DNA of 64,000 nucleotides, from assembly GCA_029253965.1 (NCBI GenBank), contig JAQWYM010000038.1, positions 914-64,913 of the forward strand. The letters run 5' to 3'. Shown here one piece after another: positions 6,116 to 53,396 of this stretch. Below the pieces are notes generated by a model, which worked only from the letters and a program-made list of their open reading frames with translations, searched no databases and had not been told where the DNA came from. This stretch comes from Gammaproteobacteria bacterium. GTDB taxonomy: Bacteria; Pseudomonadota; Gammaproteobacteria; UBA4575. Position 1 is the stretch's first letter, and each line of letters starts with the position of its first letter. The position numbers were made by a program, and so were the translations under genes.

Positions 6116-7066
6116 ATGAGATTAATCATAATTTTTTGTTTGCTATCACTGTTTGCCGCCAAGGTCTCTGCTGACACTTATCACTATCAAGTAGGTGATG
6201 AAGTTGTGGGTAATATGGGGATTTATGTCCTCAAAGAAAATGATAATTTCTTGGCTCTAGCACAAGAATTGCGGGTCGGCTTTAACGAATTAGTCGAAGC
6301 CAATCGAAATATCGACCCATGGATACCAGAAGCCGGTGAACGCATAATTGTGCCCACCCGTTATGTCTTGCCTAATGTAAAGCAAACAGGTGTGGTGGTT
6401 AATTTAGCAGAGCTAAGACTGTATTATTTTCACCCAGCAGAGGTGGGTAGCCAGTCACTAGCGGTTAGCACCTATCCGATCAGTGTGGGTAAAAGTGAAC
6501 AGTGGGGAACGCCACTGGCTGAAACCAAGATTATTGGTAAAAGAGCAAAGCCGAATTGGTATCCACCAAAATCTATCCGCGCTGAGCATGAGGCTAAGAA
6601 CGATCCATTACCGGCAGTGGTGCCGGCAGGGCCTGATAACCCTTTAGGTGACTATGCCATACGTCTAGGACTGCCTGGCTACCTAATTCATGGCACCAAT
6701 GTGCCTGATGGTATCGGAATGCGAGTAACTCACGGCTGTATTCGCATGCATCCTAATGGTATTCAGCAGCTTTTCTCAGAGGTAAAGATCAATACACCGG
6801 TACAGATTATCAATCAGCCCTATAAAGTGGGTTGGCATGAAGATCAGCTCTATATTGAAAGTCATGCAGAAACTGAGGAATATCAAAAAGCTGCGTCAAA
6901 GAATTTAACGCAGTTTGTACAGGCGGTTATAAAACAAACTGCTGTTCACACGGCTTATGAAGTAGAAACCGACTGGGAAGAAGCTTATCTGAGGGCGAGG
7001 AATAAGCAGGGCATGCCATTTTCGATTGCTCGGCGTCAGATGAGGGCGGTAGGAGAGGCTGAATAG
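6116..7066 (+). CDS. Periplasmic L,D-transpeptidase (YkuD/ErfK family) with an N-terminal LysM-like segment
   Basis: Signal peptide present. Catalytic motif IHGT....IGMRVTHGCIRM (His and Cys). Confidence 0.85.
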   Translation: MRLIIIFCLLSLFAAKVSADTYHYQVGDEVVGNMGIYVLKENDNFLALAQELRVGFNELVEANRNIDPWIPEAGERIIVPTRYVLPNVKQTGVVVNLAELRLYYFHPAEVGSQSLAVSTYPISVGKSEQWGTPLAETKIIGKRAKPNWYPPKSIRAEHEAKNDPLPAVVPAGPDNPLGDYAIRLGLPGYLIHGTNVPDGIGMRVTHGCIRMHPNGIQQLFSEVKINTPVQIINQPYKVGWHEDQLYIESHAETEEYQKAASKNLTQFVQAVIKQTAVHTAYEVETDWEEAYLRARNKQGMPFSIARRQMRAVGEAE

Positions 7067-7100
7067 GGTTTTAGGTATGACTCTTATAAATTAAAGACGA

Positions 7101-7130
7101 AAAAAAGGCCTCTAGAAGAGGCCTTTTTTA
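7101..7130. terminator. Bidirectional rho-independent terminator between convergent genes
   Basis: AAAAAAAGGCCTCT-AGA-AGAGGCCTTTTTT: a perfect 8-bp GC-rich stem flanked by an A run and a T run. Confidence 0.85.
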
Positions 7131-7151
7131 TACTCAATAAAAAGTTAAGGA

Positions 7152-7466
7152 TTACTTAGCTTTCATTGTGTCGTGGAACATCACGTTAGCACGACGAGTA
7201 TTTGCATCAGCAGTATCCTGAGCCATAGTCGCTAATTCTACTGCTAAATCAGCAGTTTCTTGAGCGCCTAATGCCATGTCTTTAGCAACAGATGCGTTGT
7301 AACCCGCAGTGTTAGCTGTGCGTAGTGCTTCATTCGCAATCTCGCGAACTTCATCTAATGGATTAGCACCATTAGCAGTTGTAGAATTTACAGTACAACC
7401 GGTAGCGATAACAACAGTTCCAGCTAGTGCTATGGCTTGAAGAGATTTCAGTAGCTTTGCTTGCAT
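7152..7466 (-). CDS. Small alanine-rich outer-membrane lipoprotein, Lpp/OprI-like, with a C-terminal Lys
   Basis: Lipobox LAGTVVIATG|C follows the start MQAKLLK (ATG at 7466). The mature part is Ala-rich and looks helical. The protein ends ...TMKAK. The upstream extension in the ORF track has no signal-peptide logic. Confidence 0.6.
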   Translation of the reverse strand: MQAKLLKSLQAIALAGTVVIATGCTVNSTTANGANPLDEVREIANEALRTANTAGYNASVAKDMALGAQETADLAVELATMAQDTADANTRRANVMFHDTMKAK

Positions 7467-7813
7467 TTCTTGACTCCAGGGTTTGTGTATCGTGGATAAT
7501 ACCACTTTATAATTTATTATTAGTATGAAAAATCTAGCTACCAAAGAGATCAATCAAGATCCTATGAAAGATTAATCAATATCATTCTTTCCTTCAGTAG
7601 ATAGCCCCATTCTATGTAAATTTCTAGAAGATACCAATAGTTTTAACTATAAATTCGCCACGTTCTTTAATCTCTGCATAGTTTGTTGTCGCTATTTGGT
7701 CGTTTGTTTGAGCATTTATTCATCAAGTTGTTTGAAACAGACTGCTCTCGAGCCAACAATAAGCATGAATTAGCGTATTATTATAATTATGAGCCATTTG
7801 CTAAGGAGAGGCT

Positions 7814-8247: not shown

Positions 8248-8601
<354 letters not shown>

Positions 8602-8791: not shown

Positions 8792-10366
8792 ATGACTGAC
8801 AGAATCCGTCTGCACTATTTAATGCACATAGAACTTGCTGATGCTGAGGCATTAGCTGAAAAAATTCTTATTGAACAAAGTGTCGAGACACCATTAGATG
8901 TCTTGAGTGATGACATCAAAGAAAAGATTCTTGGCAGAATTGAGCTTTTAGAAGAGCTCAGCGATCGTGCCGGTTACTGCCGAGTAGTCTTTAGCTTTTC
9001 AGCAGCTAATGTAGGTGAAAGTTTCAATCAACTACTCAATCTATGTTTCGGTAATGTGTCGATGTACCCCGGCGTACGGTTGCTAGATATTGAGCTCCCT
9101 GAGAGTGTTTTAAGCCATTTCCAAGGACCGCGTTTTGGTATTCAAGGTGTTCGCCAGGCACTGGGTGTTTATCAACGTCCCTTATTAGCGACAGCACTCA
9201 AGCCAAAAGGTGAAAGTGATGCCTATTTCGCTGACCTAGCTTATGCCTTTGCTAGTGGTGGCGGCGATATCATTAAAGATGATCAAAATCTGATAGCGAA
9301 TTTTAGCGCCTTTCAGTCACGGACAACTGCGTGCCAACAAGCATTACAGCGAGCAGCAGATGATAGTGCCAGCCGTTGCCTATACTTCCCTTATATTGCC
9401 TCTAAATATGAAGAGCTGGAGCGTCATTTTGCTTGGCTTAAGGAGTTGGGGCTGAAGGGTGTTTTATTATCACCTCTGATTATGGGGCTGGATCACGCGC
9501 GTGGTTTGGCGCAGCAATATGATCTTATCTATATGGCTCATCCTGCTTTTTCTGGAAGTTTTAGTATTCAAGCTTCACACGGTATGTCAGCTGAACTGCT
9601 TTATGGTTACCTCTATCGACTGGCTGGAGTTGATATCTCAGTATTTCCTAATGCCGGTGGTCGCTTCTCTTTTAGTCAGTTAGAGACAGCAGCTATTAGC
9701 CAGCGTCTTCGAGCGCCACTAACAGGGATTGCTGCAGCCTTACCCTGTCCAGCAGGTGGGATGACCTATGCCGATTTGCCAGACATGGGGCTGACCTATG
9801 GTGCCGACTCAGTGTTTTTGCTTGGGGGTTCTTTGTTACAACATAATGCGGATAGCAAAAAATCGACAGCAGACTTTAAAGCAAAGATTCTAGAGCAATT
9901 TGATGAGGAGTTAGTTGCACAGGAAAAAAGTGTTAAGGCAGTTTCTTCCTGCGAGATTGGTGACTCAGCGGCACAAGCGTTTCTAGAGTATCTGCCAGCA
10001 GTAGATTTTGATTGGCAAGATCGTCCGGCCATTCTCTATAAAAAAGATCAGACACTACCTTTTACCGGTGTGAAACGCATAGAGCTCATTGGCAAGCAAG
10101 ATGAAGCATGTTGCTTTGACTTGCGTTATTTTGAAATCGAAGCAGGCGGTTATTCCAGTCTGGAACGTCATCAGCATAGTCATGTCATTATCGGTGCACG
10201 TGGTCGAGGTAAGGTCTTAGTTGCTGAGAAAAACTATTATTTATCGGCGCATGATGTGATTTATATCAAGCCAAACACGGCGCATCAAATACATAACCAT
10301 GAAGATAAACCCTTAGGTTTTTACTGTATTGTTGATCGGAATAGAGACCAAGCAGAGTCTATTTAA
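8792..10366 (+). CDS. RuBisCO-like protein (form IV large-subunit homologue) fused to a C-terminal cupin domain
   Basis: Residues 1-~400 show ALKPKGES (KPK motif), GGGDIIKDDQNL (equivalent to GGLDFTKDDEN, but with Q in place of E204), PNAGGRF, PCPAGGM and LLGGSL. Residues ~415-524 show the cupin motifs G.YSSLERHQHSHVIIG ... IKPNTAHQIHN. Confidence 0.8.
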   Translation: MTDRIRLHYLMHIELADAEALAEKILIEQSVETPLDVLSDDIKEKILGRIELLEELSDRAGYCRVVFSFSAANVGESFNQLLNLCFGNVSMYPGVRLLDIELPESVLSHFQGPRFGIQGVRQALGVYQRPLLATALKPKGESDAYFADLAYAFASGGGDIIKDDQNLIANFSAFQSRTTACQQALQRAADDSASRCLYFPYIASKYEELERHFAWLKELGLKGVLLSPLIMGLDHARGLAQQYDLIYMAHPAFSGSFSIQASHGMSAELLYGYLYRLAGVDISVFPNAGGRFSFSQLETAAISQRLRAPLTGIAAALPCPAGGMTYADLPDMGLTYGADSVFLLGGSLLQHNADSKKSTADFKAKILEQFDEELVAQEKSVKAVSSCEIGDSAAQAFLEYLPAVDFDWQDRPAILYKKDQTLPFTGVKRIELIGKQDEACCFDLRYFEIEAGGYSSLERHQHSHVIIGARGRGKVLVAEKNYYLSAHDVIYIKPNTAHQIHNHEDKPLGFYCIVDRNRDQAESI

Positions 10367-10824
10367 AGAGTGCTGTTCTTCAGATGAAACAGCAGCATAT
10401 TAGTCATGGCTGAAAAGTTTTTGCGGTAAAACGCTTGCAGACATAACACCGTTTTAGGGTCGTCAGCACTGATCGATAGCTGCGTTTGCTGGCTGTCGCT
10501 GAGTAAGGAATCGTAGCCTGTCTGAGTGGCTATGGTTTGGCTGGATGTCGCGTCACCACAGATTTGATTGGCACGTTGCTGCCATAAAAAAGCGAGTGAA
10601 CGTAATGCGTCGCTATTCTCTTGTGACAAGGTGATTAGCAACTTCCGTTTCTTTTCTATTATGTGCTGATCATTCTCTATGTCGCCAGCAGCCGTGTCAT
10701 AATAATGTCCAAATTTAAACAACATTTGTTCTGCGATACGTTCTTCTGAATCACTTTGTCCGCAGGCTATTAGCAGTAGACTAAGCAGCATGAGAATGAG
10801 TGTTTTAAAATGATGGTCGCACAT
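10363..10824 (-). CDS. Hypothetical lipoprotein
   Basis: Signal peptide plus lipobox LLLIAC|GQS. No recognisable domain. Convergent with the RLP gene, overlapping it by 4 nt. Confidence 0.45.
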   Translation of the reverse strand: MCDHHFKTLILMLLSLLLIACGQSDSEERIAEQMLFKFGHYYDTAAGDIENDQHIIEKKRKLLITLSQENSDALRSLAFLWQQRANQICGDATSSQTIATQTGYDSLLSDSQQTQLSISADDPKTVLCLQAFYRKNFSAMTNMLLFHLKNSTL

Positions 10825-12623: not shown

Positions 12624-14894
12624 ATGCAGAAAGTACAGACACCAATTGTAAAAGACTTGGTTCTAATTGGTGGTGGTCATGCACATTTAGCCGTTCTAAA
12701 GAAATTTGCAATGCAACCATTACCCGGGCTTCGACTCACCTTAATTACGCGTGATTTGCATACACCTTATTCTGGAATGCTACCGGGGTATGTGGCTGGC
12801 CACTATAATTATGATGACTGTCATATTGATCTTGCTCGTCTTGCTCGCCTTGCTCAATGCCGTATTTATCATGCAGAAGTAGAAGGCTTACAACTTACTG
12901 AGCAGCGCGTTGATGTGGCTGGAAGGCCATCTGTATATTTTGATCTATTATCCATTAATACAGGTTCGACTCCGGCTGTTTCTAAGATCAGTGGTGCAGA
13001 GCAATATGCGATAGCAGCTAAGCCAATTGATCGCTTTCTAGAACAATGGCGGCAACTACAAGCTAGGGTCTTAGCAGCGGCTGGAGAATTTCCAATTTCA
13101 GTGGTCGGTGGAGGTGCTGGTGGTGTTGAATTAGCTTTAGCGATGCACCATCGACTGTCTCAGTTACAAAGCGAGCAGCCTATAACGCAGAATAAGGCAA
13201 AGGTATCTATTCGACTAATTACCAAAAGTGAAACAATATTACCAACCTATTCCAACAGACTGCGCAAACGTTTTTATACTATTTTGCAGCAACGTGGAAT
13301 TGAGATCATTGAAGGCCTTGGTGTCAGCAAGACAGAAGCTAATAAGCTGTATTTAGATGATCAAACTAAGCTGGCTTCATTAGCTAATATAGTGGTGACC
13401 AATGCTGCCGCACCTACTTGGCCAAAAAAGAGTGGTCTTGCTGTGGATGAGGCTGGTTTTATTCAAGTCAATGCACAGCTACAGTCTCTCTCTCATGAAA
13501 ATATTTTTGCTGCTGGTGATATCGCGAGTTTCGCTCAGCTAAAGCAGAAGTCTGGTGTTTATGCGGTTCGTCAAGGGCGAATATTAAGCGCTAACTTACG
13601 GCATTTTGCGCTTAAAAAATCACTCAAAAAATATCATCCGCAGAAGACTACTTTAAGTCTTATTGGTACAGGCGATAAAGTAGCTATTGCTTCACGCGGC
13701 TTATGGACAGCTTCAGGCCCTTCAGTTTGGCGCTTGAAGAACTGGATTGATCAACGTTTTGTTCGGCAGTACAGTGATCTGCAAGCTATGCAGGAAGATG
13801 AAGTCCCAGGCTTTAATACGAAGTTAGCAGATGAGCAGGCCGCTCGTGAATTATCTACTTTAGCGATGCGTTGTGGTGGCTGTGGAGCCAAGGTTGGTAG
13901 CAGTGTACTGGCTCGAGTAATGCAGCGATTACCACAGCAAAGTCGTGCTGATGTGCTGGTTGGACGAGATGCCCCTGACGATTGCGCTGTTATTACTGTG
14001 CCTGCAGGCAAGTTATTAGTGCAAAGTGTTGATTATTTTCGTGCCTTTGTTGACGACCCCTACTTGTTTGGTGCGATTGCTAGTAACCATGCCTTGGGCG
14101 ATGTTTTTGCGATGGGTGCTGAGGCACAATCAGTTTTAGCCATTGCAACGGTACCCTATGCTCGTGAACGAGTGGTTGAAGAAACACTTTATGATGTTCT
14201 TGCTGGTTGCATGTATATGCTTGAAGGCACTGGCGCCATACTCACGGGGGGCCACTCTGCTGAAGGTGCAGAGCTTTCTTTTGGTTTGAGTGTAAATGGT
14301 TTGGTTAAGGCCGATAGTGCCTGGAGCAAGGCAGGCCTGCAGGCTGGAGACGCCTTTTTACTGACCAAGCCAATTGGTACTGGCACTTTATTTGCAGCGG
14401 ATATGCGCGCACAAGCGAAGGGACGGTGGATTGATTCAGCTTTAGATAGCATGATGCTTTCTAGCCAACAGGCAGCACAATGCTTGATGAACTATAAGGT
14501 CACTGCCTGTACTGATCTGACTGGCTTTGGCCTGCTCGGCCATCTATTTGAAATGACTAAGGCATCAAAGGTGGGTGCGGAGTTATACATTGATCAAATT
14601 CCTCTGCTTGATGGTGCGCAAGAGACAGTTAATGCAGGTATTCTTTCATCGTTGCAGCCACAGAATTTGCGTTTAAAAAGAGCCTTGAATAATCTTGAGA
14701 AAGCAGCACAACACCCTCGCTTTCCGCTGTTATTTGATCCGCAGACAGCAGGAGGCTTGCTGGTAGCCGTACCCTTTGATCAAGCCGAGACCTGTCGCAA
14801 TGAGTTAATAAGATGTGGTTATTCAGATACCGCTATTATTGGCCAAGTACTTGGATCAGCTGATCAAACTCAACCCATTAAAATTGTATATTAG
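12624..14894 (+). CDS. selD: Bifunctional FAD/NAD(P)-dependent pyridine nucleotide-disulfide oxidoreductase (NDH-2-like) :: selenide, water dikinase SelD
   Basis: N-terminal ~390 aa carry two Rossmann motifs (LIGGGHAH; VVGGGAGGVE) and TPYSGMLPGYVAG. C-terminal ~350 aa are SelD-like: RCGGCGAKVG (catalytic Cys and Lys; Cys rather than Sec), DDCAV, the PurM-like fold and TDLTGFGLLGH. Confidence 0.85.
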   Translation: MQKVQTPIVKDLVLIGGGHAHLAVLKKFAMQPLPGLRLTLITRDLHTPYSGMLPGYVAGHYNYDDCHIDLARLARLAQCRIYHAEVEGLQLTEQRVDVAGRPSVYFDLLSINTGSTPAVSKISGAEQYAIAAKPIDRFLEQWRQLQARVLAAAGEFPISVVGGGAGGVELALAMHHRLSQLQSEQPITQNKAKVSIRLITKSETILPTYSNRLRKRFYTILQQRGIEIIEGLGVSKTEANKLYLDDQTKLASLANIVVTNAAAPTWPKKSGLAVDEAGFIQVNAQLQSLSHENIFAAGDIASFAQLKQKSGVYAVRQGRILSANLRHFALKKSLKKYHPQKTTLSLIGTGDKVAIASRGLWTASGPSVWRLKNWIDQRFVRQYSDLQAMQEDEVPGFNTKLADEQAARELSTLAMRCGGCGAKVGSSVLARVMQRLPQQSRADVLVGRDAPDDCAVITVPAGKLLVQSVDYFRAFVDDPYLFGAIASNHALGDVFAMGAEAQSVLAIATVPYARERVVEETLYDVLAGCMYMLEGTGAILTGGHSAEGAELSFGLSVNGLVKADSAWSKAGLQAGDAFLLTKPIGTGTLFAADMRAQAKGRWIDSALDSMMLSSQQAAQCLMNYKVTACTDLTGFGLLGHLFEMTKASKVGAELYIDQIPLLDGAQETVNAGILSSLQPQNLRLKRALNNLEKAAQHPRFPLLFDPQTAGGLLVAVPFDQAETCRNELIRCGYSDTAIIGQVLGSADQTQPIKIVY

Positions 14895-17195: not shown

Positions 17196-17984
17196 TTATT
17201 TTTTAATAATGGCTTCTAAAAACACGAGACTATCTTTTCGGCTTTCTTCAAAGGCTGCTTGATTACGTCCTAGCATATGACCTTTATAGGCCTGTATTGG
17301 AATGTTTAAGTCAAAGCTATGGTATGCCTCCGCGTAGACCTTAAGCTCAAGCCCTTGTTGCTGCCGTTGGCCTGATAGTTGTCGGCAGAGTGAGGCCGGT
17401 GTCCAGTCATCTTTTTCACCAATAAGTACCAATGTGGGACTCACCAAACGCGCATTATTATTGAGCATATAACCGCACCATGGGTAGAGAGCAATGGCGC
17501 CACTAAAGCGGCTCTCTGACGCTGCTAGGCGCTGTCCCTCAGTACTAGCACTCAAGAGTGCTACGCTCGCGCCGTTACTTTGACCGAGTACGAAAATATG
17601 TTCACTGATATCGGCTCGAGCTGCAAGGTAGTCATAGGCCATAAAGGCATCTTTATTACGATAGTCTAAAGCCTGACGTAAAAGGTCAATAGACGAACAG
17701 ACGCGACCACCGGATAAACTACGTTTACTGAATGAGTCGACTATTAGCGTTGCATAGCCCTGTTTCTTGAAAAAATTAGCCCAGTCTGTCAAGCCTTCTT
17801 TAACCACAGCAATCAATCCTGAGCAACCATGCATAGCCACTATGGCGGGAAACGGTCCGACCCCTTCCGGTAAATGAAGCTGATAGATAACATCAGAATT
17901 TGACTCATCTGCGATAGCTGTAGAAAAGTTTAATGAAAGACTTAATAGTGCAGCGACTAAATAATATAGGCCGTTATTCTTCAT
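17196..17984 (-). CDS. Secreted alpha/beta hydrolase, dienelactone-hydrolase family
   Basis: Signal peptide, HGCSG, a nucleophile-elbow-like GQSNGA and a C-terminal AYHSF. It ends the minus-strand gene string. Confidence 0.65.
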   Translation of the reverse strand: MKNNGLYYLVAALLSLSLNFSTAIADESNSDVIYQLHLPEGVGPFPAIVAMHGCSGLIAVVKEGLTDWANFFKKQGYATLIVDSFSKRSLSGGRVCSSIDLLRQALDYRNKDAFMAYDYLAARADISEHIFVLGQSNGASVALLSASTEGQRLAASESRFSGAIALYPWCGYMLNNNARLVSPTLVLIGEKDDWTPASLCRQLSGQRQQQGLELKVYAEAYHSFDLNIPIQAYKGHMLGRNQAAFEESRKDSLVFLEAIIKK

Positions 17985-17987
17985 GTC

Positions 17988-18527
17988 TTAACTCCTAGAA
18001 GTATTGGAATCTTTTAAACGCTTTATAAAGTAATAACTTACAGGTAAAAGCAGGGCCCACTCAAGTGAAAACACGAGTAGGGACTGCCATAGCGGTTCAG
18101 CGAAGCTGAGTGCATCAAAGCGGCTGCCAGCATAGTAACTACTGATACTGCCAAAGGCGCCTGCTAACATCGCTATAAGCGGCTTACGATGCAGCCAGTA
18201 GAGGCTGTGTGGCAGACTGACAGCAAATACCATCCATAGGGTTAGTAACCAGTAGGGAATAGCTAAAAATGATGCATTGCTGGCATAAAAACTAACAACC
18301 TCAAAGGTTTGATTGAGTGAGTCAAGCAATAAGCCAATACTGGTGACGCCAACCAGTATTATAAAATCAACAGAGGCATGAGGGCTGAAGCTAAAATGCA
18401 GTGCCAGATAGATGATAGCGGCTATGACACCTAGTGAGGCGTCTTGCTCAACAGCAGCATAGGCACAGGCAGCCCAAACTAATTGTAGACCGATAAAGTT
18501 AAATACAAAGAAAAAGTTTATTTTCAT
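17988..18527 (-). CDS. Multi-TM membrane protein (DUF2878-like)
   Basis: Five or six hydrophobic helices. Overlaps the upstream CFA-synthase-like gene by 4 nt. This is the position usually taken by DUF2878 in such clusters. Confidence 0.5.
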   Translation of the reverse strand: MKINFFFVFNFIGLQLVWAACAYAAVEQDASLGVIAAIIYLALHFSFSPHASVDFIILVGVTSIGLLLDSLNQTFEVVSFYASNASFLAIPYWLLTLWMVFAVSLPHSLYWLHRKPLIAMLAGAFGSISSYYAGSRFDALSFAEPLWQSLLVFSLEWALLLPVSYYFIKRLKDSNTSRS

Positions 18528-19795
18528 CTGTGCAGGTTCAACTCATAGTTACTGCGTGGTTTTTTGAAACATAAATGTTGAATATCAATAACACGCTCTT
18601 CAAAGCCAGCTTGACAGTACTTTAAATAATACTCCCAGAGACGAATGAATGATTCTGGATAACCAAGGCTGATCACTTTTTCATAATTTGTGATGAAGCG
18701 TTCATGCCAGAGTTCTAAGGTCTTAGCGTAACTAGAGGCAAAGGCTTCAGAATGAAATAACGTCAAGTCAGTCTTACGACTTACGCTGTCCAGCATTGAG
18801 TGCATACTGGTAAGACAGCCACCAGGGAAGATGTATTTCTGAATGAAATCCACTGAGCGTAAGTAGTCTTGATACATGTAATCAGAGATTGTAATCGCTT
18901 GTATTAGCATGATGCCGTTTTCCTTTAGACGTTGGCTGCATACCTGAAAGTAGCTATCCATGTATTGATGGCCAACGGCTTCAATCATTTCAATCGAAAC
19001 AAGCTTGTCATATTCACCCTCTAATTCACGATAGTCTTGTTTTAATAGGGTAATACGATCTTCTAGGCCTGCTTTCTTAATAGAATTTTTTGCGTAGGCA
19101 TGCTGTTCATCAGAGATGGTGGTGGTTGTAATTCGGCAGTTATAGTTTTTTGCTGCATAAATGGCAAAGCCACCCCAACCAGTACCAATTTCTAAAACAT
19201 GATCATTCTCATTCAAATCTAGCTTCTCACAGATCACACGCAGCTTTTTTACTGAAGCCTCTTCAAGTTGCTTTATATCCTTACTAAAATAGGCTGATGA
19301 ATACATCATGCTAGGGTCTAAAAATAGAGCATATAAGTCATTGCCAATATCATAATGTGCGCTGATATTCTTTTTTGAACCGATCCTATTGTTTTTACGT
19401 AAAAAATGTAGTGCTGAAAAGGCATAACGCGAAAAGACACCTAGGTCTGCATCCAATGAAAACATGACCTCTCGATTAAGTATGAGTAAGCGCAATACAT
19501 CTATGACTGATTCTGAACTCCACCAGGCATCGACATAGGCCTTTCCTGCGGCAGGTTCACCACCAAAGACGATACTTTTAAAGCAGGCTGGGTTGTCGAT
19601 ACAGATATGTGCATCTAACGAGATGCCAGAATCTTTGCTGCCAAATTCAGTCACTTCATTAGCAAACTCAAGGCGTAAATAACCCTGTGTTATTTTATTT
19701 AACTTGGCAAAAAGTAAATCTTTAGCCAGTCGATCAAGCCAGTTCATATTAACGGTGTTTAATGACTTGCTTTGCTCTTTTGGAATAATAGACAT
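18524..19795 (-). CDS. Cyclopropane-fatty-acyl-phospholipid synthase family SAM-dependent methyltransferase
   Basis: AHYDIGNDLY, the SAM motif VLEIGTGWGG, IEMIEAVG and a C-terminal YLKYCQAGFE. Confidence 0.85.
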   Translation of the reverse strand: MSIIPKEQSKSLNTVNMNWLDRLAKDLLFAKLNKITQGYLRLEFANEVTEFGSKDSGISLDAHICIDNPACFKSIVFGGEPAAGKAYVDAWWSSESVIDVLRLLILNREVMFSLDADLGVFSRYAFSALHFLRKNNRIGSKKNISAHYDIGNDLYALFLDPSMMYSSAYFSKDIKQLEEASVKKLRVICEKLDLNENDHVLEIGTGWGGFAIYAAKNYNCRITTTTISDEQHAYAKNSIKKAGLEDRITLLKQDYRELEGEYDKLVSIEMIEAVGHQYMDSYFQVCSQRLKENGIMLIQAITISDYMYQDYLRSVDFIQKYIFPGGCLTSMHSMLDSVSRKTDLTLFHSEAFASSYAKTLELWHERFITNYEKVISLGYPESFIRLWEYYLKYCQAGFEERVIDIQHLCFKKPRSNYELNLHR

Positions 19796-19808
19796 CGGTC
19801 TCTCTTAA

Positions 19809-20564
19809 CTAAGGTTTTTTATAAGGTACATACTTGATACCTTTGATCCACAATTTTAGTGCCTGCCAATAAATAGCCAAAATAATTTTAAAGCTCATTA
19901 ATGGGAAATTGCATAGCGTGCTGCGCAGGGTTTGCGCATTTAATGATTTTCTCTCTAAGTTCATCTTTGCTGAGAATAAGATTTCGTCTTCAACTAGATT
20001 TTCAATTTGTACCTCTAGCCTTTCAAGAGGCTGGGAAATTTGCCAACGGTATTGCATGTCAGAATGCATGAAAGGTGATACATGGAAGGTCTTCTGGTGC
20101 TGAGCATGAAATACTTCTGCGTTTGATTGGTTAGCACTGAGCACATAACAGTGTTGTTCATTCCATGGTGTATTACTGACTTCAGCAACAATATGTGTGA
20201 GGTTTTCACCGCTCAGATCAAAGCAAAAATAAAGACTTAATGGGTTGAAGGCATAACCTAATAATCTAAACTGAGTTAAGAGCCGAATGGGGCCTGCAAC
20301 TGGTTGCTGGGTTCGCTCTAAGACTAATTGACGAATACTGCTACTCAGTGTTGTTTTGTCACAGCCATAATGATCTTTGCGTCGAAATGAGGCGACATTA
20401 AAACGATCTATTCCCCACAACCAAAAGGGTTTAAAGGTCTGTTCTAATTCATCAAGATCAACATACAACATAAATAGTTGATATTGAAATGAATGAACTC
20501 TGGGTAGGTTACGCTGATGCCAAACGCTGCCCTGATAAATGCAGCTATGCTGTGTTGGCTTCAT
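19809..20564 (-). CDS. DUF1365 family protein
   Basis: IYQGSVWHQR..P..H.F.Y.LFM.Y.DLDEL and the FRRKDH motif. I prefer the ATG at 20564, which overlaps the end of the upstream gene. Confidence 0.7.
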   Translation of the reverse strand: MKPTQHSCIYQGSVWHQRNLPRVHSFQYQLFMLYVDLDELEQTFKPFWLWGIDRFNVASFRRKDHYGCDKTTLSSSIRQLVLERTQQPVAGPIRLLTQFRLLGYAFNPLSLYFCFDLSGENLTHIVAEVSNTPWNEQHCYVLSANQSNAEVFHAQHQKTFHVSPFMHSDMQYRWQISQPLERLEVQIENLVEDEILFSAKMNLERKSLNAQTLRSTLCNFPLMSFKIILAIYWQALKLWIKGIKYVPYKKP

Positions 20565-21813
20565 TACAATTTCTTTTAATTGCGTTGACTGCTTGTAATG
20601 CGCTCCAAACACCATCCTCATGAAAACCATGACGCCAATAAGCGCCACAATAAGAGGTGTTGTTGAGTTGATTCATTGTTGTGAATTGCTGTTGTGCCTC
20701 GATCGCTGCTTGGTTGAATACTGGATGCATATAGTTAACACGAGCATAAACACAAGCCTCATCAATCAAGCCATCATCATTCAAGGTAACGAAATAATCC
20801 TTGTCACTCTCTATTTTTTGTAAAAGATTCATATAGTAAGTGAGCTGCACTCGGTCAGTAGGTTTTTCAGGGATATAGTAGTTCCAAGCAGCCCAGCTAT
20901 TTTTGCGTTTCGGCATCAGGCTGCTATCACTGTGCAGGGTGGCAATGTTGAGTTGGTAGTTGAGGGCTGACAAGCAGTCCTTTTCTAAAGTTGTTGGCTG
21001 CTCTAATAAGCGCAACGCTTGATCACTATGACAGGCGAAAATGACATGATCAAAATACTGTAGATTATGATTACTACTGGTTTCAATTTGAACGCCACTG
21101 CGTGATCTATGTACTGAGCGAACAGCGGTGTTTAGATGAATTTTCTCTCGAAAAGGCTGGCACAAACGACTGACATACTCTTTTGAGCCGCCGACAATAG
21201 TCTTCCATTGTGGGCGCTTGAAGAGATTCAGAAGACCATGATTCTGGAAGAAGTGTAGGAAGCTGGCTGCGGGGTATTCTTGGATACTTGCAGGGCTGGA
21301 TGACCAGATTGCTGCGCCCATAGGTAAGATGTAGTAATTAATAAAAGCGTCACTAAATCTATGTTCTGCTAGAAACTCAGCTAATGTCCAGTGGCTATCC
21401 TTGTTTGCTGCAACATAGCGTTTAGCTTGTTTATTAAAGCGCAGCATGTCGAATAAGATTTGATAAGGTTGCAACCGCCAAAAATTATCACGATTAAAAA
21501 TTAGGCTGGCCAGTGTATTGCCAGCCCATTCAAATTTTGTGCTCTCTGATTTAGCCGAAAAACCCATATCAGAATTATGGATGTCTACACCTAGTGGTAA
21601 AACCATCTCTTGGAAATGTGGGTAGGTCCAATCATTGAATACAATAAAACCTGTATCAATAGGAATTTCTCTACCCGCCTCTTCAACGCTGAGTGTGTTG
21701 GCATGACCGCCAATATGGCTGTCTGCTTCAAAGATCGTGATTTCATGATCCGCTTGTAGGTGGTGTGCTGCTGTTAGTCCTGAGACACCCGCACCAATTA
21801 TTGCTATTCGCAT
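20545..21813 (-). CDS. FAD-dependent oxidoreductase (amine-oxidase/phytoene-desaturase-like)
   Basis: N-terminal dinucleotide fold MRIAIIGAGVSGLTAA..L and GGH motifs, with a C-terminal GAYWRHGFHEDG. Confidence 0.8.
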   Translation of the reverse strand: MRIAIIGAGVSGLTAAHHLQADHEITIFEADSHIGGHANTLSVEEAGREIPIDTGFIVFNDWTYPHFQEMVLPLGVDIHNSDMGFSAKSESTKFEWAGNTLASLIFNRDNFWRLQPYQILFDMLRFNKQAKRYVAANKDSHWTLAEFLAEHRFSDAFINYYILPMGAAIWSSSPASIQEYPAASFLHFFQNHGLLNLFKRPQWKTIVGGSKEYVSRLCQPFREKIHLNTAVRSVHRSRSGVQIETSSNHNLQYFDHVIFACHSDQALRLLEQPTTLEKDCLSALNYQLNIATLHSDSSLMPKRKNSWAAWNYYIPEKPTDRVQLTYYMNLLQKIESDKDYFVTLNDDGLIDEACVYARVNYMHPVFNQAAIEAQQQFTTMNQLNNTSYCGAYWRHGFHEDGVWSALQAVNAIKRNCNEANTA

Positions 21814-21856
21814 TGCTGTTCTCTTTTGCTGCTATATCTGTAAAAAGTTGACACGA

Positions 21857-22648
21857 TTAATGTCTGCTCGGTTTCATGCTGAGTTTGAGTAACGCAAAAC
21901 GTAAGCGCTCAGGGAGGTAGGCTAAAAACTTCAGGGATAAACTCATGCGCTTAGGAAAATGGATTTCAAAGTGATTTTTTGCCATACCATTTAATATTGC
22001 CATACTCGCTTTTTCTGCGGATATTAATGCTGGCATAGGGAAGTCATTACGCGCGGTGAGCTCAGTTGCAACAAAGCCCGGACAAATAACTTGGGTGCAG
22101 ATGTTCTTAGTAGATAAGCTGACACGTAAGGCACTCAGCATATTGAAGATAGCGGCCTTACTTGCACCATAGGCCTCTGATCGTGGGATACCAATATAGC
22201 TGGCAACACTACTCATGCCGACGAGTTTGGCGTGCTCAGACTGTTCTAATAAGGGTAGAGCGCTTTCTATGCCATAAACCATACTAAGGAAATTAGTTTT
22301 TATGAGCTCTTCAAAGACAGTGCTATCAAAGGCATCCACATCAACATATTCACAGCTGCCAGCATTAAGAATAGCCAGATCGAGGCGTCCTTGATGCTGC
22401 TGTATCTCGCTGCAAATAGTTTGGTTGCTGGCTTTGAGGCAGAGATCAGCAGGCAGTAAATGCACTTGAGCCTTACTCGAACATTGACTTGCTGTTTGTT
22501 CTAAGTTCTTCCTTGAGCGTGCGCTTAGGTAGAGCTCGCAGTCGAATTGTGACAAGGCAATGGCCAGTGCGCGACCAATGCCGGAGGAGGCGCCGGTTAG
22601 CCAAATAACCTTGCCTGAAAATGCTTTTTGTAATTGCTTAGCAGACAC
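21857..22648 (-). CDS. Short-chain dehydrogenase/reductase
   Basis: TGASSGIGRA cofactor motif, NAG, and the catalytic Y..SK (YGASKAA). Confidence 0.85.
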   Translation of the reverse strand: MSAKQLQKAFSGKVIWLTGASSGIGRALAIALSQFDCELYLSARSRKNLEQTASQCSSKAQVHLLPADLCLKASNQTICSEIQQHQGRLDLAILNAGSCEYVDVDAFDSTVFEELIKTNFLSMVYGIESALPLLEQSEHAKLVGMSSVASYIGIPRSEAYGASKAAIFNMLSALRVSLSTKNICTQVICPGFVATELTARNDFPMPALISAEKASMAILNGMAKNHFEIHFPKRMSLSLKFLAYLPERLRFALLKLSMKPSRH

Positions 22649-22652
22649 GGTT

Positions 22653-23078
22653 CTAGATCTGTCCCTTAATTTTGCGAATAACGGCGCCTAGAATGGGTAT
22701 CTGTTCATAAACCATAGCACCAAGGTCATAATAGTCGCGTTGATAATGAATTAAGTCTTGGCGGTAGTGCAACACGCTGACACCATTCAAGAGAATGTCT
22801 CGCTTCGGAGCTAATGTCTTATGCCTGAGTCGCATCTCCCATTCTAAGCTGCTCTTATCTGCTGTGCTGATTGATCCTAGTAATTCAAAATGACAAGACT
22901 GCACCCCTGCGTAGATGTCTTCAAAGTAAGTGATTAAATTGGCGCAGCCATGGATACGTTTTACAGGGTCGATAAACTCTGCATCAACATGATAGAGCTG
23001 ATTTAAAATAGTCGATGCCGTAGCAGCATTGATGGCGTTCATTTTCTCTAAAAAATCGGTATCTCTAACGCTACTCAT
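22653..23078 (-). CDS. NTF2/SnoaL-like fold protein
   Basis: 141 aa. The size and the position between the SDR and DUF3429 genes are typical of this conserved cluster. Motif support is weak. Confidence 0.45.
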   Translation of the reverse strand: MSSVRDTDFLEKMNAINAATASTILNQLYHVDAEFIDPVKRIHGCANLITYFEDIYAGVQSCHFELLGSISTADKSSLEWEMRLRHKTLAPKRDILLNGVSVLHYRQDLIHYQRDYYDLGAMVYEQIPILGAVIRKIKGQI

Positions 23079-23152
23079 AAGGTATGGCTTCCGCTATTTT
23101 TGAGTGAAATTTAGGGTTAAGTGCTGCGTCTATTGTATATATCATCATTATT

Positions 23153-23596
23153 TCAATTCGCTATTACAAGGGTTTGGCTGAGGAGACAGGTTACAACGAT
23201 GACACTTATACGTCTGCGTAGAAGGTAATAGTGCGTTGATATGCATTTACTATGCTTGAGATTGCGGTCTATCAACCAAAGTAAACAGAAGATAAGAGCA
23301 TGCAGCAAAAGCGCAAGTTTTTGACTTAGTAAAAGATAAGAAAACCAAGCACTGAGGCTGCAAATATTACTCATAATAAAGAGTTGACTGCTCCACCTCT
23401 GATCCAGGTCTAAGCTTTGTCCCCAATGAACACCAGACATGAAACTAATAATCACAAGGCTATAGCTGAGTAGAATATCCAGCCAAGACAAGCCGACAAT
23501 GACTGTTTCAATTTGAAACGAAATCATCAGCGTGCAGGCGATAAACGGTATTACACCAGCATGAGCTAATAAGGCTGTGGTTCGGTCACGGTCCAT
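23153..23596 (-). CDS. Small membrane protein (DUF3429-like)
   Basis: Four hydrophobic helices with a GVHWG motif. First gene of the lipid-modification string. Confidence 0.5.
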   Translation of the reverse strand: MDRDRTTALLAHAGVIPFIACTLMISFQIETVIVGLSWLDILLSYSLVIISFMSGVHWGQSLDLDQRWSSQLFIMSNICSLSAWFSYLLLSQKLALLLHALIFCLLWLIDRNLKHSKCISTHYYLLRRRISVIVVTCLLSQTLVIAN

Positions 23597-23648
23597 ATGG
23601 TTACTGCATGTCCTAGGTTATACGTTAAAATTTATGGCCCTGTATTCA

Positions 23649-24233
23649 TTAACCCTGCTCTATATACCTAAAGGTTAGATTGATGCGTCCAGTAATAATA
23701 CCTTTCTGTTTTGGTACGCTATGTCGCCAGTATTGTTGGCAGCAGCCAGCCATTAATAGAGCGCTGCCGCTGCTTAGATCAATCTTGCGTAATTCTTTTG
23801 TAGTGACGTGTTGTAGTTTAAATAGCCGAGTAGCGCCGAGGTTTACCGAGGCGATAGCGGGCTGGCCTCCTAACTGTTTTTCATTGTCTCGGTGCCAGCC
23901 CATGCTGTCATTGCCATCACGATAATAGTTGAGTAGAACACTGTTAAAACGGCGCTTAAAAAAGCCTTCGACCCGTTCTCTCAAGTGGCTCAACTCTGCA
24001 GTCCACGGCTGAGCAATATAATCTGCTCCAGAGTAGCGATAATTAGCACCAACATCACCATGCCAAGCTATCAGTCGGGGCTGTAGCATGCGTTTCCCGA
24101 AGAGGGTGATACTGCGCTGCTCCCAGGCGATAGAGTCGCTTAGACTTAAATACAAGACATCACTTTCTTCCACTGTTAACAAAGCAGAGTTAAAATAAAG
24201 TTCGCCGTCATAGGGTAAAAGATTGTCTGCCAT
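23649..24233 (-). CDS. alkB: Fe(II)/2-oxoglutarate-dependent dioxygenase, AlkB DNA/RNA dealkylation repair family
   Basis: WHRDNE (HxD), a distal His (YWRHSVP) and the RINLTFR tail, as in E. coli AlkB (RYNLTFR). Confidence 0.8.
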   Translation of the reverse strand: MADNLLPYDGELYFNSALLTVEESDVLYLSLSDSIAWEQRSITLFGKRMLQPRLIAWHGDVGANYRYSGADYIAQPWTAELSHLRERVEGFFKRRFNSVLLNYYRDGNDSMGWHRDNEKQLGGQPAIASVNLGATRLFKLQHVTTKELRKIDLSSGSALLMAGCCQQYWRHSVPKQKGIITGRINLTFRYIEQG

Positions 24234-24375
24234 GGATTTGTTTTAATTTAGCGTGGCTGCAAAGTAATTTGTACATGAATTGTAACCCCTAAATCTTTCT
24301 TTAAACATAACAGATAATATACAAGCGCTGTTTGAGTGCTAAAATATCTGTACAAGAACTATATGAGATTCAAGA

Positions 24376-24768
24376 ATGTCGGCTAATCAAGCTCTGCGTG
24401 TTTTTTATGATGACCTCTGCCCATTGTGCAGCAAAGAAATTAACCATTACCGCAAATTAGTTAAGCACGTGGCGGTCGATTGGGTTGAGATTAGTCGCTC
24501 AGCAGAATTAATTGAAAGTTTCGCTTTGACGCGTGAACAATTGCTTAAACGCATCCATGTGATTACAGCGGAAGGTGAGGTGGTCAGTGGTGCGCGAGCA
24601 TTTACACTGATTTGGAAGGCACTTCACTATTATCGTGTGCTCGGCGTGATAGTGACTCGATTACGCATGATTGGCCTATTAGATCGATTATATGAGCCCT
24701 ATGCAGATAGTCGCTATAAAAAACGCATGAGCTGTCACGATGATAGTAGTGCAGGCTCTAATCGTTGA
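24376..24768 (+). CDS. Thiol-disulfide oxidoreductase DCC family (DUF393)
   Basis: N-terminal VFYDDLCPLCSKEI motif (D-C-x2-C). Overlaps the downstream photolyase homologue by 4 nt. Confidence 0.75.
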   Translation: MSANQALRVFYDDLCPLCSKEINHYRKLVKHVAVDWVEISRSAELIESFALTREQLLKRIHVITAEGEVVSGARAFTLIWKALHYYRVLGVIVTRLRMIGLLDRLYEPYADSRYKKRMSCHDDSSAGSNR

Positions 24769-30510: not shown

Positions 30511-30534
30511 TGTTATGGCTACCGTTGTCTTATA

Positions 30535-30584
30535 GAATGTTATGTTATAACTAATCATACATTAAGTTGTTATAACATAACAAT
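30535..30584. promoter_or_regulatory. Pair of Zur-box-like sites forming a large inverted repeat
   Basis: TGTTATGTTATAAC (30539-30552) and its exact reverse complement GTTATAACATAACA (30568-30581), separated by 15 nt. Each arm contains the GTTATAAC core resembling the gammaproteobacterial Zur consensus (GAAATGTTATAnTATAACATTTC). Confidence 0.6.
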
Positions 30585-30595
30585 AGGTTCTGGCT

Positions 30596-31054
30596 ATGTA
30601 TAAAGACCATTCACATTCAAAATGCATAAGTACAGCTCTAGAGAGGGCAGATAGCCTGTGCAGTAAGCGAAATGTTCGCTTTACGCCAATAAGAAAAAAG
30701 GTATTGAGCTTGATTTTAGAACAACACATGCCAATCAAGGCCTACGATATTCTGGCTAAACTGAGTGATGCGGAACACATTGAAAAACCGCCTACGGTCT
30801 ATCGTGCTTTGGAATTCTTAATTGAGAATCAGCTGATTCATAAAATTGATAGTAGTAACAGCTTCATTGCCTGCGAATTCGATCATAAGCAGCATGAGAG
30901 CCAGTTCCTAGTTTGTGATAACTGCAATGAAGTGATGGAGCTACAAGAGCCACTTCTGAGCTCAGCCTTGACTGAAATCAGTGAGAGTAAGGGCTTCATC
31001 ACACGCCAGAGTCATGTCGAGATTCATGGGGTTTGTGCGGATTGTGCTAATTAA
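30596..31054 (+). CDS. zur: Zinc uptake regulator (Fur family)
   Basis: Close to E. coli Zur along its length: RNVR.TP.R..VL, KPPTVYRAL.FL, C.NC..., HG.CA.C. Confidence 0.88.
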   Translation: MYKDHSHSKCISTALERADSLCSKRNVRFTPIRKKVLSLILEQHMPIKAYDILAKLSDAEHIEKPPTVYRALEFLIENQLIHKIDSSNSFIACEFDHKQHESQFLVCDNCNEVMELQEPLLSSALTEISESKGFITRQSHVEIHGVCADCAN

Positions 31055-31055
31055 T

Positions 31056-31668: not shown

Positions 31669-31687
31669 AGAACAGTTATAGACTGTC

Positions 31688-53351: not shown

Positions 53352-53396
53352 TGTGTTCCTTCATGCTAGCTCGTCTTATGTTACCTGTTAGGCCTT

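Follow-up and report, generated by a model that had tools for sequence, protein, structure and literature searches.

Among the RuBisCO-like proteins (RLPs), the DeepYkr type comprises 5-methylthioribulose-1-phosphate (MTRu-1-P) 1,3-isomerases, e.g., Rru_A1998 and R. palustris RLP1 (RPA2169; homologue structure 3qfw, 100 % identical to P0121). Their partners are 1-methylthioxylulose-5-phosphate (MTXu-5-P) methylsulfurylases of the cupin type, i.e., Rru_A2000 (3jzv), the R. palustris proteins RPA2170 and 3kgz and the H. halophila protein 3ibm, which stand alone and are encoded immediately after the RLP. The isomerases of this type convert MTRu-1-P to MTXu-5-P, with MTRu-5-P as a further product. 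Rru_A2000 has been described as an MTXu-5-P sulfurylase (PMC4958253), and for R. palustris the in vivo roles of MTRu-1-P isomerase (RLP1) and MTXu-5-P methylsulfurylase (the cupin) are documented (PMC5893883). The thiol-dependent conversion of MTXu-5-P to 1-deoxyxylulose-5-phosphate (DXP) and a methylthio adduct is a known activity in R. rubrum and R. palustris, and a mechanism with glutathione has been described for this cupin step (PMC4334135, PMC5893883). A further RLP group, YkrW/MtnW, has the same RuBisCO fold and likewise a role in MTA and methionine salvage, where it acts as 2,3-diketo-5-methylthiopentyl-1-phosphate (DK-MTP-1-P) enolase (B. subtilis; G. kaustophilus, 2oek).

Mergers of consecutive pathway enzymes are known from Tetrahymena MtnBD, which joins methionine-salvage enzymes (PMC3698126), and from CPR bacteria, where one polypeptide holds a form III-c RuBisCO and an R15P isomerase (PMC6389311). 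Both support coupling by fusion, although their domains and reactions differ from those of an RLP-cupin fusion, which neither paper mentions; the GOS paper reported only novel branches. Here, we describe such an RLP-cupin fusion. It is a fused form of an already known enzyme pair, i.e., the coupling itself is not new. According to the first-pass annotation of this DNA, the fusion as such is not known to have been characterised, and we found no mention of it in the full-text searchable literature, a set that does not extend to Erb 2012, Warlick 2012 or Tabita 2007.

The fusion gene and its surroundings

The window, i.e., the whole analysed stretch of 64,000 nucleotides from a gammaproteobacterial contig, contains the following genes at the locus.

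8248..8595, minus strand: HIT-family gene, neighbour of the fusion ORF
8792..10366, plus strand: complete RLP-linker-cupin fusion ORF (ORF list and sequence; ATG start, 524 aa plus stop)
10363..10824, minus strand: 153-aa ORF with a lipoprotein-like N-terminus (LLIAC), downstream of the fusion

The first-pass annotation had placed a 524-aa ORF with both domains exactly at these coordinates, with hinT and a lipoprotein gene as neighbours, and we find the same arrangement. Pfam detects both domains in the ORF (RuBisCO_large at residues 116-351, E 1.9e-20; Cupin_2 at 446-514, E 4.6e-11), and these matches are far above chance level. The AlphaFold2 model of the 524-aa protein has a mean pLDDT of 92.7 and a pTM of 0.78. 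All motifs named beforehand could be located, i.e., LKPKG (136-140), IKDDQN (161-166), MAHPAF (248-253), PNAGGRF (286-292), PAGGM (320-324) and LGGS (344-347) in the RLP half as well as GGYSSLERHQHSHVIIG (453-469) and PNTAHQIHN (494-502) in the cupin half. The GC3 of the fusion gene (0.35) is in line with that of its neighbours (0.34-0.39), which speaks against an artefact.

The 153-aa ORF at 10363..10824 yields no Pfam match. For the 64-kb window, Pfam labels were taken from a near-identical contig, and the other large ORFs were run through hmmscan; no mtnA, mtnP, mtnN, mtnK or O-acetylhomoserine sulfhydrylase gene is found among the ORFs of at least 100 aa labelled in this way. Upstream of the fusion, no SAM or Met riboswitch is detected at Rfam gathering thresholds; the sole weak Rfam match there is a chance snoRNA match. 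Promoter and terminator consensus scans stay at background level.

The RLP half

8792..9889, plus strand: RLP domain, residues 1-366 (N-terminal alpha/beta domain and TIM barrel), DeepYkr-like 'KDDQN' subtype (phmmer, Foldseek)
9053..9055, plus strand: codon N88, at the RuBisCO N123 position and at Lys98 of MtnW enolases (N in 121/121 fused proteins)
9200..9202, plus strand: codon K137, equal to RuBisCO K175 and G. kaustophilus MtnW K147 (motif alignment; invariant, 121/121 fused proteins)
9275..9289, plus strand: codons K162-D163-D164-Q165-N166 (motif alignment of 121 fused proteins)

The RLP half does not have what MtnW enolases and true RuBisCOs require. Its best phmmer match in the PDB is the R. 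palustris DeepYkr RLP 3qfw (E 3e-63, query residues 16-365; 217.6 bits), while the other clades reach at most 134.6 bits (YkrW 120.7-134.6, form III 107-124, Photo 105-106, NonPhoto 76, form I/II up to 83). Foldseek agrees: the modelled RLP half matches 3qfw with a target-normalised TM of 0.94 and an rmsd of 1.9 A, compared to TM values of 0.81-0.85 for MtnW. That is, the RLP half is closest to DeepYkr in sequence and in predicted fold. Architecture and length fit as well, since DeepYkr RLPs have the two-domain RuBisCO large-subunit fold, without a small subunit, and about 366 aa, and the unfused homologues of the RLP half end at about 366-370 aa.

Fused and DeepYkr RLPs have the motifs EQ[ST]VE, FGN, LKPxG, KDD[QH], [FY][PT]NxGGRF and PxP[AG]GG in common, all of which are absent from MtnW; they also agree in AHP and GG[SA]L. 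MtnW has KDD and AHP in common with the fusion, whereas the latter shows an insertion at KPxG and GGRF in place of YGSV. The identity of the fused RLPs is 34-40 % to R. palustris RLP1 and 34-43 % to cupin-linked DeepYkr RLPs. In pairwise blastp comparisons, the cupin-linked RLP of H. halophila obtains 222-272 bits with the fused RLP domains and 208-240 bits with R. palustris RLP1; versus MtnW, all three (fused domains, H. halophila RLP, RLP1) obtain 100-180 bits.

Within the active site, K162 occupies the position of the RuBisCO carbamate lysine K201 and D164 that of the metal ligand D203, while Q165 replaces E204. The K, both D and the N of KDDQN are each found in 121/121 fused proteins; at position 165, 116 of them carry Q and 5 carry H. 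The cupin-linked unfused DeepYkr RLPs (R. palustris RLP1 included) read KDDHG instead, and MtnW reads KDDE. A further difference concerns the K177 position, within KPxG, which is R/K in fused RLPs vs. Q/L/M in validated or cupin-linked DeepYkr RLPs. Since these changes sit at active-site positions, specificity could differ.

By sequence, the fused RLPs form a distinct 'KDDQN' subclade that includes cupin-less members. Further architectures in this subclade are Inositol_P+RLP and RLP+Transketolase_N. None of the four nearest stand-alone KDDQN RLPs has an adjacent cupin, and two of the four adjoin unrelated dehydrogenase genes; neighbours of stand-alone members are either SDR and Ldh_2 genes or a GAPDH pair with xanthine-dehydrogenase-like genes. 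We also considered a single fusion event. In neighbour-joining trees, which were built with one outgroup only, the fused RLPs were monophyletic in 182/200 replicates with few unfused sequences included. This support fell to 0/100 once the nearest stand-alone RLPs were added, and we thus dropped the claim.

The cupin half and the linker

9890..9991, plus strand: inter-domain linker, residues 367-400 (about 35), the least conserved part and partly disordered (conservation, pLDDT)
9944..9955, plus strand: semi-conserved linker motif S385-S386-C387-E388 (pattern [STA][STAG]C[ED])
9992..10363, plus strand: cupin domain, residues 401-524, MTXu-5-P methylsulfurylase type (phmmer against PDB, Pfam Cupin_2, alignment with 15 stand-alone members)
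10163..10183, plus strand: cupin motif 1, E458-R-H460-Q-H462-S-H464, presumed metal-binding residues (E458, H460, H462 and H464 each 121/121)
10283..10288, plus strand: cupin motif 2, H498-Q499 (H 121/121, Q 120/121; kept in all stand-alone members)
10325..10327, plus strand: codon C512, family-wide conserved Cys in the strand GF(Y/L)C(I/V)V (C in 120/121 fused proteins)

When the cupin half is compared with the PDB via phmmer, the methylsulfurylases lead (3ibm from H. halophila 3e-26, 3kgz from R. palustris 1e-19, 3jzv, i.e., Rru_A2000, 8e-18). Generic cupins follow with E values of at least 9e-8, at least 10 orders of magnitude behind. The comparison of the cupin by HMM and structure proposed along with the first-pass annotation thus places Rru_A2000, 3kgz and 3ibm far ahead of generic cupins. 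JGI names close stand-alone homologues 'S-methyl-1-thioxylulose 5-phosphate methylthiotransferase'.

The alignment to the stand-alone methylsulfurylases covers their full length, except for their C-terminal tail of about 20-30 residues, which is absent from the fusion. Identity to the R. rubrum and R. palustris cupins is 34-36 %, and across stand-alone methylsulfurylase cupins it is 34-43 %. As an alignment of 15 stand-alone with 21 fused members shows, the fused cupin retains every position that is conserved in the family (W408, Y416-K417, RYFE, ExHxHxH, HQ, GFxC and RD(R/K)P), and within 121 fused proteins these residues are conserved to 99-100 %. The ExHxHxH pattern of motif 1 is also present in Rru_A2000, 3kgz and 3ibm, and C512 aligns with the Cys of GFLC in the same three proteins.

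The linker shows a mean column conservation of 0.38-0.46 (121 fused proteins) and a pLDDT below 50 at residues 381-391 of the AlphaFold2 model. The [STA][STAG]C[ED] pattern is found in the linker of 84/121 fused proteins, while the RLP C-termini and cupin N-termini of R. palustris and H. halophila do not carry an SSCE-type motif.

Occurrence and gene order in other genomes

An assembly or frameshift artefact at the junction, named by the first-pass annotation as a finding that would speak against a real fusion, can be ruled out given that 80 or more species-level MAGs across several phyla encode full-length fusions, on independent contigs and with conserved sites. The carriers are uncultured bacteria, namely Gammaproteobacteria from the sea and from soil, Planctomycetota, Acidobacteriota, KSB1 and others; examples of complete or near-complete MAGs are OZ245760.1, OX638335.1, CBDHFH010000008.1 and the one holding CALSUC010000002.1. 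The architecture, a survey of which had been proposed, is thus widespread. The identical protein is encoded on 2 contigs and a 99 % identical version on 15 contigs from independent samples. The best 120 homologues have 500-591 aa and cover 94-100 % of the query; precomputed Pfam annotations assign both domains to 113 of them and RuBisCO_large alone to 7. Across 121 fused proteins, the catalytic positions of both halves are 95-100 % conserved, which indicates that both are under selection.

Unfused RLP and cupin genes are found on the same strand and in the same order as the fused domains in R. palustris (overlap of 14 nt), in H. halophila (gap of 4 nt) and on the JGI metagenome contig L092, where the genes overlap. 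With respect to DeepYkr systems, fold, RLP length, partner family and gene order are the same, and the fusion differs, among other things, by the covalent link, through a linker often holding S-[SA]-C-E.

Next to fusion genes of other genomes, further genes of the pathway are encoded. In a gammaproteobacterial MAG (L016), mtnA (TIGR00512, 407 bits vs. cutoff 279) starts at 2197 and overlaps the fusion ORF, which ends at 2200. Nine Acidobacteriota loci show the order mtnA-tsaD-fusion on one strand (for L081, mtnA obtains 434 bits and tsaD passes TIGR03723). Linkage to mtnA is thus observed in 10 of about 80 loci, nine of which represent one closely related lineage with fusions of 80-97 % identity. 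Two KSB1 loci encode speE immediately upstream of the fusion on the same strand (NF002010, 284.6 and 284.5 bits vs. cutoff 260). Finally, in a Fimbriimonadaceae MAG a stand-alone cupin gene overlaps an O-acetylhomoserine sulfhydrylase-type gene by 4 nt (TIGR01326, 618 vs. 495 bits). The linkage to mtnA and speE, seen in three phyla, points specifically to MTA-derived MTRu-1-P.

All-vs-all clustering of the flanking ORFs of 72 loci revealed no family common beyond close relatives, i.e., no conserved operon partner. In high-GC loci, mtnA escaped the clustering, as the real genes had probably been displaced by spurious long ORFs; the linkage was recovered by targeted tblastn. Neighbours from Cys/Met metabolism at two further loci (L069, L051) were rejected as context, since they lie on the other strand at a distance of about 4 kb and reach none of the curated cutoffs.

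At first pass, mtnA, mtnP and mtnK had been noted as missing next to the fusion, and this holds for the labelled ORFs of the window. This is no counter-argument, since these genes are also unlinked to the RLP and cupin genes in R. rubrum and R. palustris (PMC4958253, PMC5893883).

Alternative explanations

[quoted passage not shown] This is the single-polypeptide enzyme pair suggested at first pass; those of the proposed checks that we ran all speak for it, and at the level of sequence it is supported by the affinities of both halves, gene order, spread and the mtnA/speE context. A paralogous two-step module with the same folds but another substrate is unlikely in comparison: here, the KDDQN RLP would act on a different (thio)sugar phosphate, isomerising or otherwise converting it, and the resulting product would be handled by the cupin. 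The Q/N for H/G exchange after KDD and the R/K at the K177 position fit this idea, as do the RLP identities of only 34-43 % to validated or cupin-linked DeepYkr proteins, the unrelated neighbours of stand-alone subclade members, the Inositol_P+RLP and RLP+Transketolase_N architectures of the subclade, and the lack of MTA genes among the labelled ORFs of the window. On the other hand, every family-specific methylsulfurylase residue is kept in the cupin half, and fusion genes elsewhere show linkage to mtnA and speE. Moreover, the fused RLPs and the cupin-linked RLP of H. halophila are equally distant from R. palustris RLP1.

The cupin fold also occurs in classical methionine salvage, as MtnD (acireductone dioxygenase) is a cupin, such that the protein might be a fusion of an MtnW-type DK-MTP-1-P enolase with MtnD. 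The best curated NCBIfam matches are indeed MtnW models, but their scores (NF007095 187.3 bits vs. cutoff 409; TIGR03332 143.6 vs. 513.6) are far too low, and no NCBIfam model reaches its cutoff on the fusion protein. Lys98 of MtnW (G. kaustophilus numbering) reportedly has a catalytic role in the enolase; the motif alignment shows FGN in fused RLPs vs. FGK in G. kaustophilus MtnW, and the invariant N88 at this position therefore excludes MtnW-type chemistry. Given that motifs and fold are nearer to DeepYkr as well, and that acireductone dioxygenase is absent from the Pfam matches (E up to 0.1) and from the 22 PDB matches of the cupin (E up to 1e-3), this explanation is effectively refuted. 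It is also very improbable that catalysis is confined to the RLP half, with the cupin attached for ligand sensing or regulation. Pfam does report an AraC_binding match for the cupin half (E 3.1e-6), but the protein has no DNA-binding domain, the closest relatives of the cupin are catalytic methylsulfurylases, and the presumed metal ligands E458, H460, H462, H464 and H498 as well as C512 are 99-100 % conserved, which is typical of an active enzyme. The data refute both a frameshift or assembly merger of two genes and a true carboxylating RuBisCO, even though JGI and some NCBI records name the proteins 'ribulose-bisphosphate carboxylase large chain'. The reading frame is the same on many independent contigs and in 80 genomes, with a linker of 36-50 residues in all homologues. 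With regard to RuBisCO, the E204 position is Q/H and the R295 position P, the positions equated with H327, K334 and S379 are mostly N, R and A (121 fused proteins), and rubisco_III yields 137 vs. cutoff 497, with the other NCBIfam RuBisCO models far below cutoff.

Proposed function and implications

According to the shunt reading, the N-terminal RLP domain would bind MTRu-1-P at a metal site formed by K162 (probably carbamylated), D164 and Q165 and isomerise it to MTXu-5-P. The C-terminal cupin would then strip the methylthio group by means of its His/Glu metal site and of a thiol co-substrate, which is glutathione in R. rubrum, yielding DXP for isoprenoid synthesis and a methylthio-thiol adduct. 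The latter would give methanethiol that is re-used for methionine. The analysis directly shows the identity of the two domains, the conservation of family-specific residues, the collinearity with unfused pairs, the wide occurrence and the linkage to mtnA, speE and OAH sulfhydrylase genes in other genomes; we infer which substrates and which thiol are used, whether there is channelling, and that this organism has the upstream enzymes. The fusion probably originated from the merger of an adjacent, translationally coupled RLP-cupin gene pair, and it probably keeps the two activities at 1:1 stoichiometry and near each other. The first-pass annotation regarded it as Rosetta-stone evidence. This stands insofar as the fusion confirms and extends the coupling of RLP and cupin; it does not reveal it, because the functional link had already been established experimentally.

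Rather doubtful are two more far-reaching versions, namely a channelling machine with its own thiol, in which C387 of the linker and/or C512 would accept the methylthio group independently of glutathione, or a KDDQN RLP with a different isomerisation that feeds new cupin chemistry. A built-in thiol, if true, would suit lineages that may lack glutathione, such as Planctomycetota, Acidobacteriota and KSB1.

Coming back to the isomerase-methylsulfurylase assignment, if it holds, the MTA-isoprenoid shunt would be far more widespread than thought, as its demonstration has so far been confined to R. rubrum and R. palustris. By means of the fusion, its carriers would obtain methanethiol independently of oxygen and DXP independently of DXS. 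It also provides a natural single-chain two-step module for studies of substrate hand-over. Public databases name fused proteins as RuBisCO large chain or subunit, the second form being 'RuBisCO large subunit C-terminal-like domain-containing protein'. Surveys of metagenomes in which RuBisCO is counted through family matches will mistake the fusions for carbon-fixation genes, and a correction of the databases is due.

Fusion gene and its distribution

The RLP-cupin fusion is encoded by a single open reading frame:

8792..10366, + strand: RLP-cupin fusion ORF, ATG start, 524 aa

All motifs quoted in the first-pass annotation are found in this ORF. Two Pfam domains are recognised, RuBisCO_large (residues 116-351, E 1.9e-20) and Cupin_2 (residues 446-514, E 4.6e-11). 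The neighbours are also as described there, i.e., an upstream HIT-family gene on the opposite strand and, downstream, a 153-aa ORF in convergent orientation whose product has a lipoprotein-like signal and no Pfam match.

We find the identical protein on 2 contigs and a version with 99 % identity on 15 contigs from independent samples. The best 120 database homologues are 500-591 aa long with 94-100 % of the query aligned, and precomputed Pfam annotation reports both domains in 113/120. We furthermore scanned one genome per species, which returned 373 related loci; all of the best 80 hold a full-length fusion (judged by record title, ~44 Gammaproteobacteria, 18 Planctomycetota, 9 Acidobacteriota, 2 KSB1, 7 others; MAGs in every case). 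The architecture, for which the first-pass annotation had proposed a survey, is widespread. About 25 representatives of a library clustered at 50 % identity are full-length fusions, and the GC3 of the gene is that of its neighbours. Given the repeated contigs, full-length homologues, 80 genomes, library representatives and GC3 fit, the in-frame junction is genuine; an artefact is effectively excluded.

Domain assignment

Among solved structures, the RLP half matches best, by a wide margin, the R. palustris DeepYkr RLP 3qfw (E 3e-63, 217.6 bits), which is 100 % identical to the 368-aa R. palustris RLP P0121. MtnW enolases (120.7-134.6 bits), form III RuBisCOs and, lower still, RLPs of the Photo (~105 bits) and NonPhoto (one protein, 76 bits) types follow. 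The AlphaFold2 model (117 homologues as input) is confident (pLDDT 92.7), with disorder at residues 381-391 only, and its predicted fold is closest to 3qfw (TM 0.94, rmsd 1.9 A) versus 0.81-0.85 for MtnW. Thus, in the clade comparison suggested earlier, DeepYkr 3qfw is nearest by sequence and predicted fold. Pairwise scores are 222-272 bits between fused RLP domains and the unfused cupin-linked H. halophila RLP, 208-240 bits between the latter and R. palustris RLP1, and 100-180 bits for all three against MtnW. Judged by sequence, this shows the fused RLP domains to lie inside the divergence range of cupin-linked DeepYkr RLPs. Both groups share EQ[ST]VE, FGN, LKPxG, KDD[QH], [FY][PT]NxGGRF and PxP[AG]GG, in which MtnW differs.

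MtnW membership is excluded: Asn occupies the position of MtnW Lys98 in 121/121 aligned fused proteins, and NCBIfam MtnW models score far below their own cutoffs. Lys98 was reportedly found to be catalytic in MtnW by Imker et al. in 2007. A true RuBisCO is likewise excluded, since in the 121 fused proteins the E204 position is Q/H and the R295 position P, while most of the proteins carry N, R and A at the positions equated with H327, K334 and S379.

Residues 395-524 match, over their full length, the cupins of H. halophila (3ibm, E 3e-26), R. palustris (3kgz, 1e-19) and R. rubrum (Rru_A2000, 3jzv, 8e-18), followed by generic cupins (TM1459 9e-8, DddK 2e-5). Acireductone dioxygenase is absent from the Pfam and PDB matches, such that of the two comparisons proposed for this half only that with the R. 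rubrum methylsulfurylase gave a match. Rru_A2000 is the MTXu-5-P methylsulfurylase (PMC4958253, PMC4334135), and the R. palustris RLP1-cupin pair has the same function in vivo (PMC5893883). In an alignment of 21 fused and 15 stand-alone cupins, the fusion keeps all family-conserved positions (W408, Y416-K417, R445-Y-F-E, E458-x-H-x-H-x-H464, H498-Q499, G-F-x-C512, R518-D519), which are 99-100 % conserved in the 121 fused proteins. Two close stand-alone homologues carry the JGI name 'S-methyl-1-thioxylulose 5-phosphate methylthiotransferase'.

Subtype, relatives and origin

On sequence grounds, the fused RLPs are a distinct subtype: KDDHG and KP(Q/L/M)G of the unfused cupin-linked RLPs correspond to KDDQN and KP(R/K)G in the fusions. 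Once the nearest stand-alone RLPs of the representative search are placed in the tree, several that share the KDDQN states fall in between the fused RLPs, and none of the four looked up has an adjacent cupin. There was thus more than one fusion or fission event, and the RLP subtype is by itself no guarantee of the function. The closest stand-alone KDDQN/KDDHN-type RLPs, all without adjacent cupin, are at three loci:

L087 2713-3870
L090 5001-6134
L091 2114-3247

Their neighbours (SDR and Ldh_2, or a GAPDH-like gene pair and a xanthine-dehydrogenase-type cluster) hint at other functions inside the subclade. Library proteins P0385, P0502 and P0380 of the same subclade show three other architectures, each with a single representative and possibly a gene-call artefact: Inositol_P (IMPase-like) plus RLP (726 aa), RLP plus Transketolase_N (730 aa; DXP_synthase_N also matches weakly), and RLP plus two Cupin_2 stretches (781 aa).

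Unfused RLP and cupin genes follow each other on the same strand with a 14-nt overlap in R. palustris (CP000301), a 4-nt gap in H. halophila (CP000544) and an overlap on a JGI metagenome contig. Loss of the RLP stop codon plus an in-frame intergenic stretch would yield the fused architecture. The linker (36-50 residues) is the least conserved stretch of the fusion. Within this otherwise variable, disordered region we find one semi-conserved motif, which neither the C-termini of the unfused RLPs nor the N-termini of the unfused cupins of R. palustris and H. halophila contain:

9944-9955: linker motif S-[SA]-C-E, residues S385-E388, in 84/121 fused proteins

Genomic context

Among the Pfam-labelled ORFs of the 64-kb window (>= 100 aa) no MTA-salvage gene was found, nor was a riboswitch upstream of the fusion gene. 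This absence carries little weight, as R. rubrum and R. palustris, too, have mtnP and mtnA apart from their RLP and cupin genes (PMC4958253, PMC5893883).

The flanks of fusions in other genomes provide positive context evidence. In a gammaproteobacterial MAG (L016), the start of mtnA (TIGR00512 equivalog, 407 bits vs. cutoff 279) lies 4 nt ahead of the stop codon of the fusion. In 9/9 Acidobacteriota loci, mtnA, tsaD and the fusion gene follow one another in this order on the same strand, mtnA lying 1.1-2.4 kb upstream of the fusion; as the nine fusions share 80-97 % identity, we count them as a single association at lineage level. In KSB1 (2/2 loci), a same-strand speE, whose product yields MTA, precedes the fusion by 57-78 nt and scores above both curated cutoffs. 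A stand-alone cupin provides a further link:

L093 4001-5709 (Fimbriimonadaceae MAG): stand-alone methylsulfurylase-type cupin and O-acetylhomoserine sulfhydrylase-type gene, 4-nt overlap, translationally coupled

The latter (TIGR01326, 618 bits vs. 495) is of the type by which the published shunt makes methionine from methanethiol; no RLP lies within 4 kb of this cupin. An MbnB/TglH/ChrH-family gene follows the pair (6307-7755). Genes for the MTA producer, the maker of the RLP substrate and the user of the cupin's sulfur product are each found beside the module in separate lineages.

Other features of the window

Further observations from the window are:

12624-14894, + strand: 756 aa, Pyr_redox_2 (NADH-dehydrogenase-like) and AIRS/AIRS_C, i.e., a SelD-like selenophosphate synthetase fused with an oxidoreductase domain
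17196-26282: cluster of DLH hydrolase, DUF2878, cyclopropane-fatty-acid-synthase-like methyltransferase, DUF1365, then SDR, SnoaL_2, DUF3429, 2OG-Fe(II) oxygenase, DCC1-like thiol-disulfide oxidoreductase and photolyase-related protein (DPRP)
28441-33955: two TonB-dependent receptors
30596-31481 and 51437-55374: two MerC paralogues, one after a Fur-family regulator, the other adjoining a zinc-uptake-like cluster (ZrgA, DUF3299, ABC/FtsX transporter)
46233-48023, + strand: 596-aa stand-alone YcaO and YcaO_C protein, no obvious partner or precursor gene nearby
56717-57586, - strand: 289 aa, matches CA_like PF10563 strongly (E 9.5e-76), the delta-carbonic-anhydrase family, known mainly from diatoms

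Discussion

Based on the observed domain identities, residue conservation, collinearity and context, the fusion is probably (about 0.7) the RLP isomerase plus methylsulfurylase cupin of the MTA-isoprenoid shunt. For the substrates, the thiol used, channelling and the upstream enzymes of the window organism, we infer the following course. MtnA would convert MTR-1-P to MTRu-1-P, which the RLP domain would isomerise to MTXu-5-P. With a thiol as co-substrate, the cupin domain would then take off the methylthio group, leaving DXP and a methylthio adduct that would release methanethiol. The isomerase and cupin chemistry follows the known shunt (PMC5893883, PMC4334135).

The main rival, suggested by the active-site differences of the fused RLPs and by their cupin-less relatives, is that the two steps belong to a paralogous module with a different substrate; we regard this as rather unlikely. 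Reading the protein as an MtnW-MtnD fusion, or its cupin as regulatory, is effectively excluded.

Covalent RLP-cupin fusion is not mentioned in the full-text literature covered by the search; an earlier mention elsewhere is possible. Database names of the fusions are only RuBisCO large chain or 'C-terminal-like domain-containing protein'. What would be new is the fused form, while the enzyme pair itself is known; since RLP-cupin coupling is already established experimentally, the fusion is no conceptual surprise. It is useful for tracing the pathway's distribution, for annotation and for enzymology.
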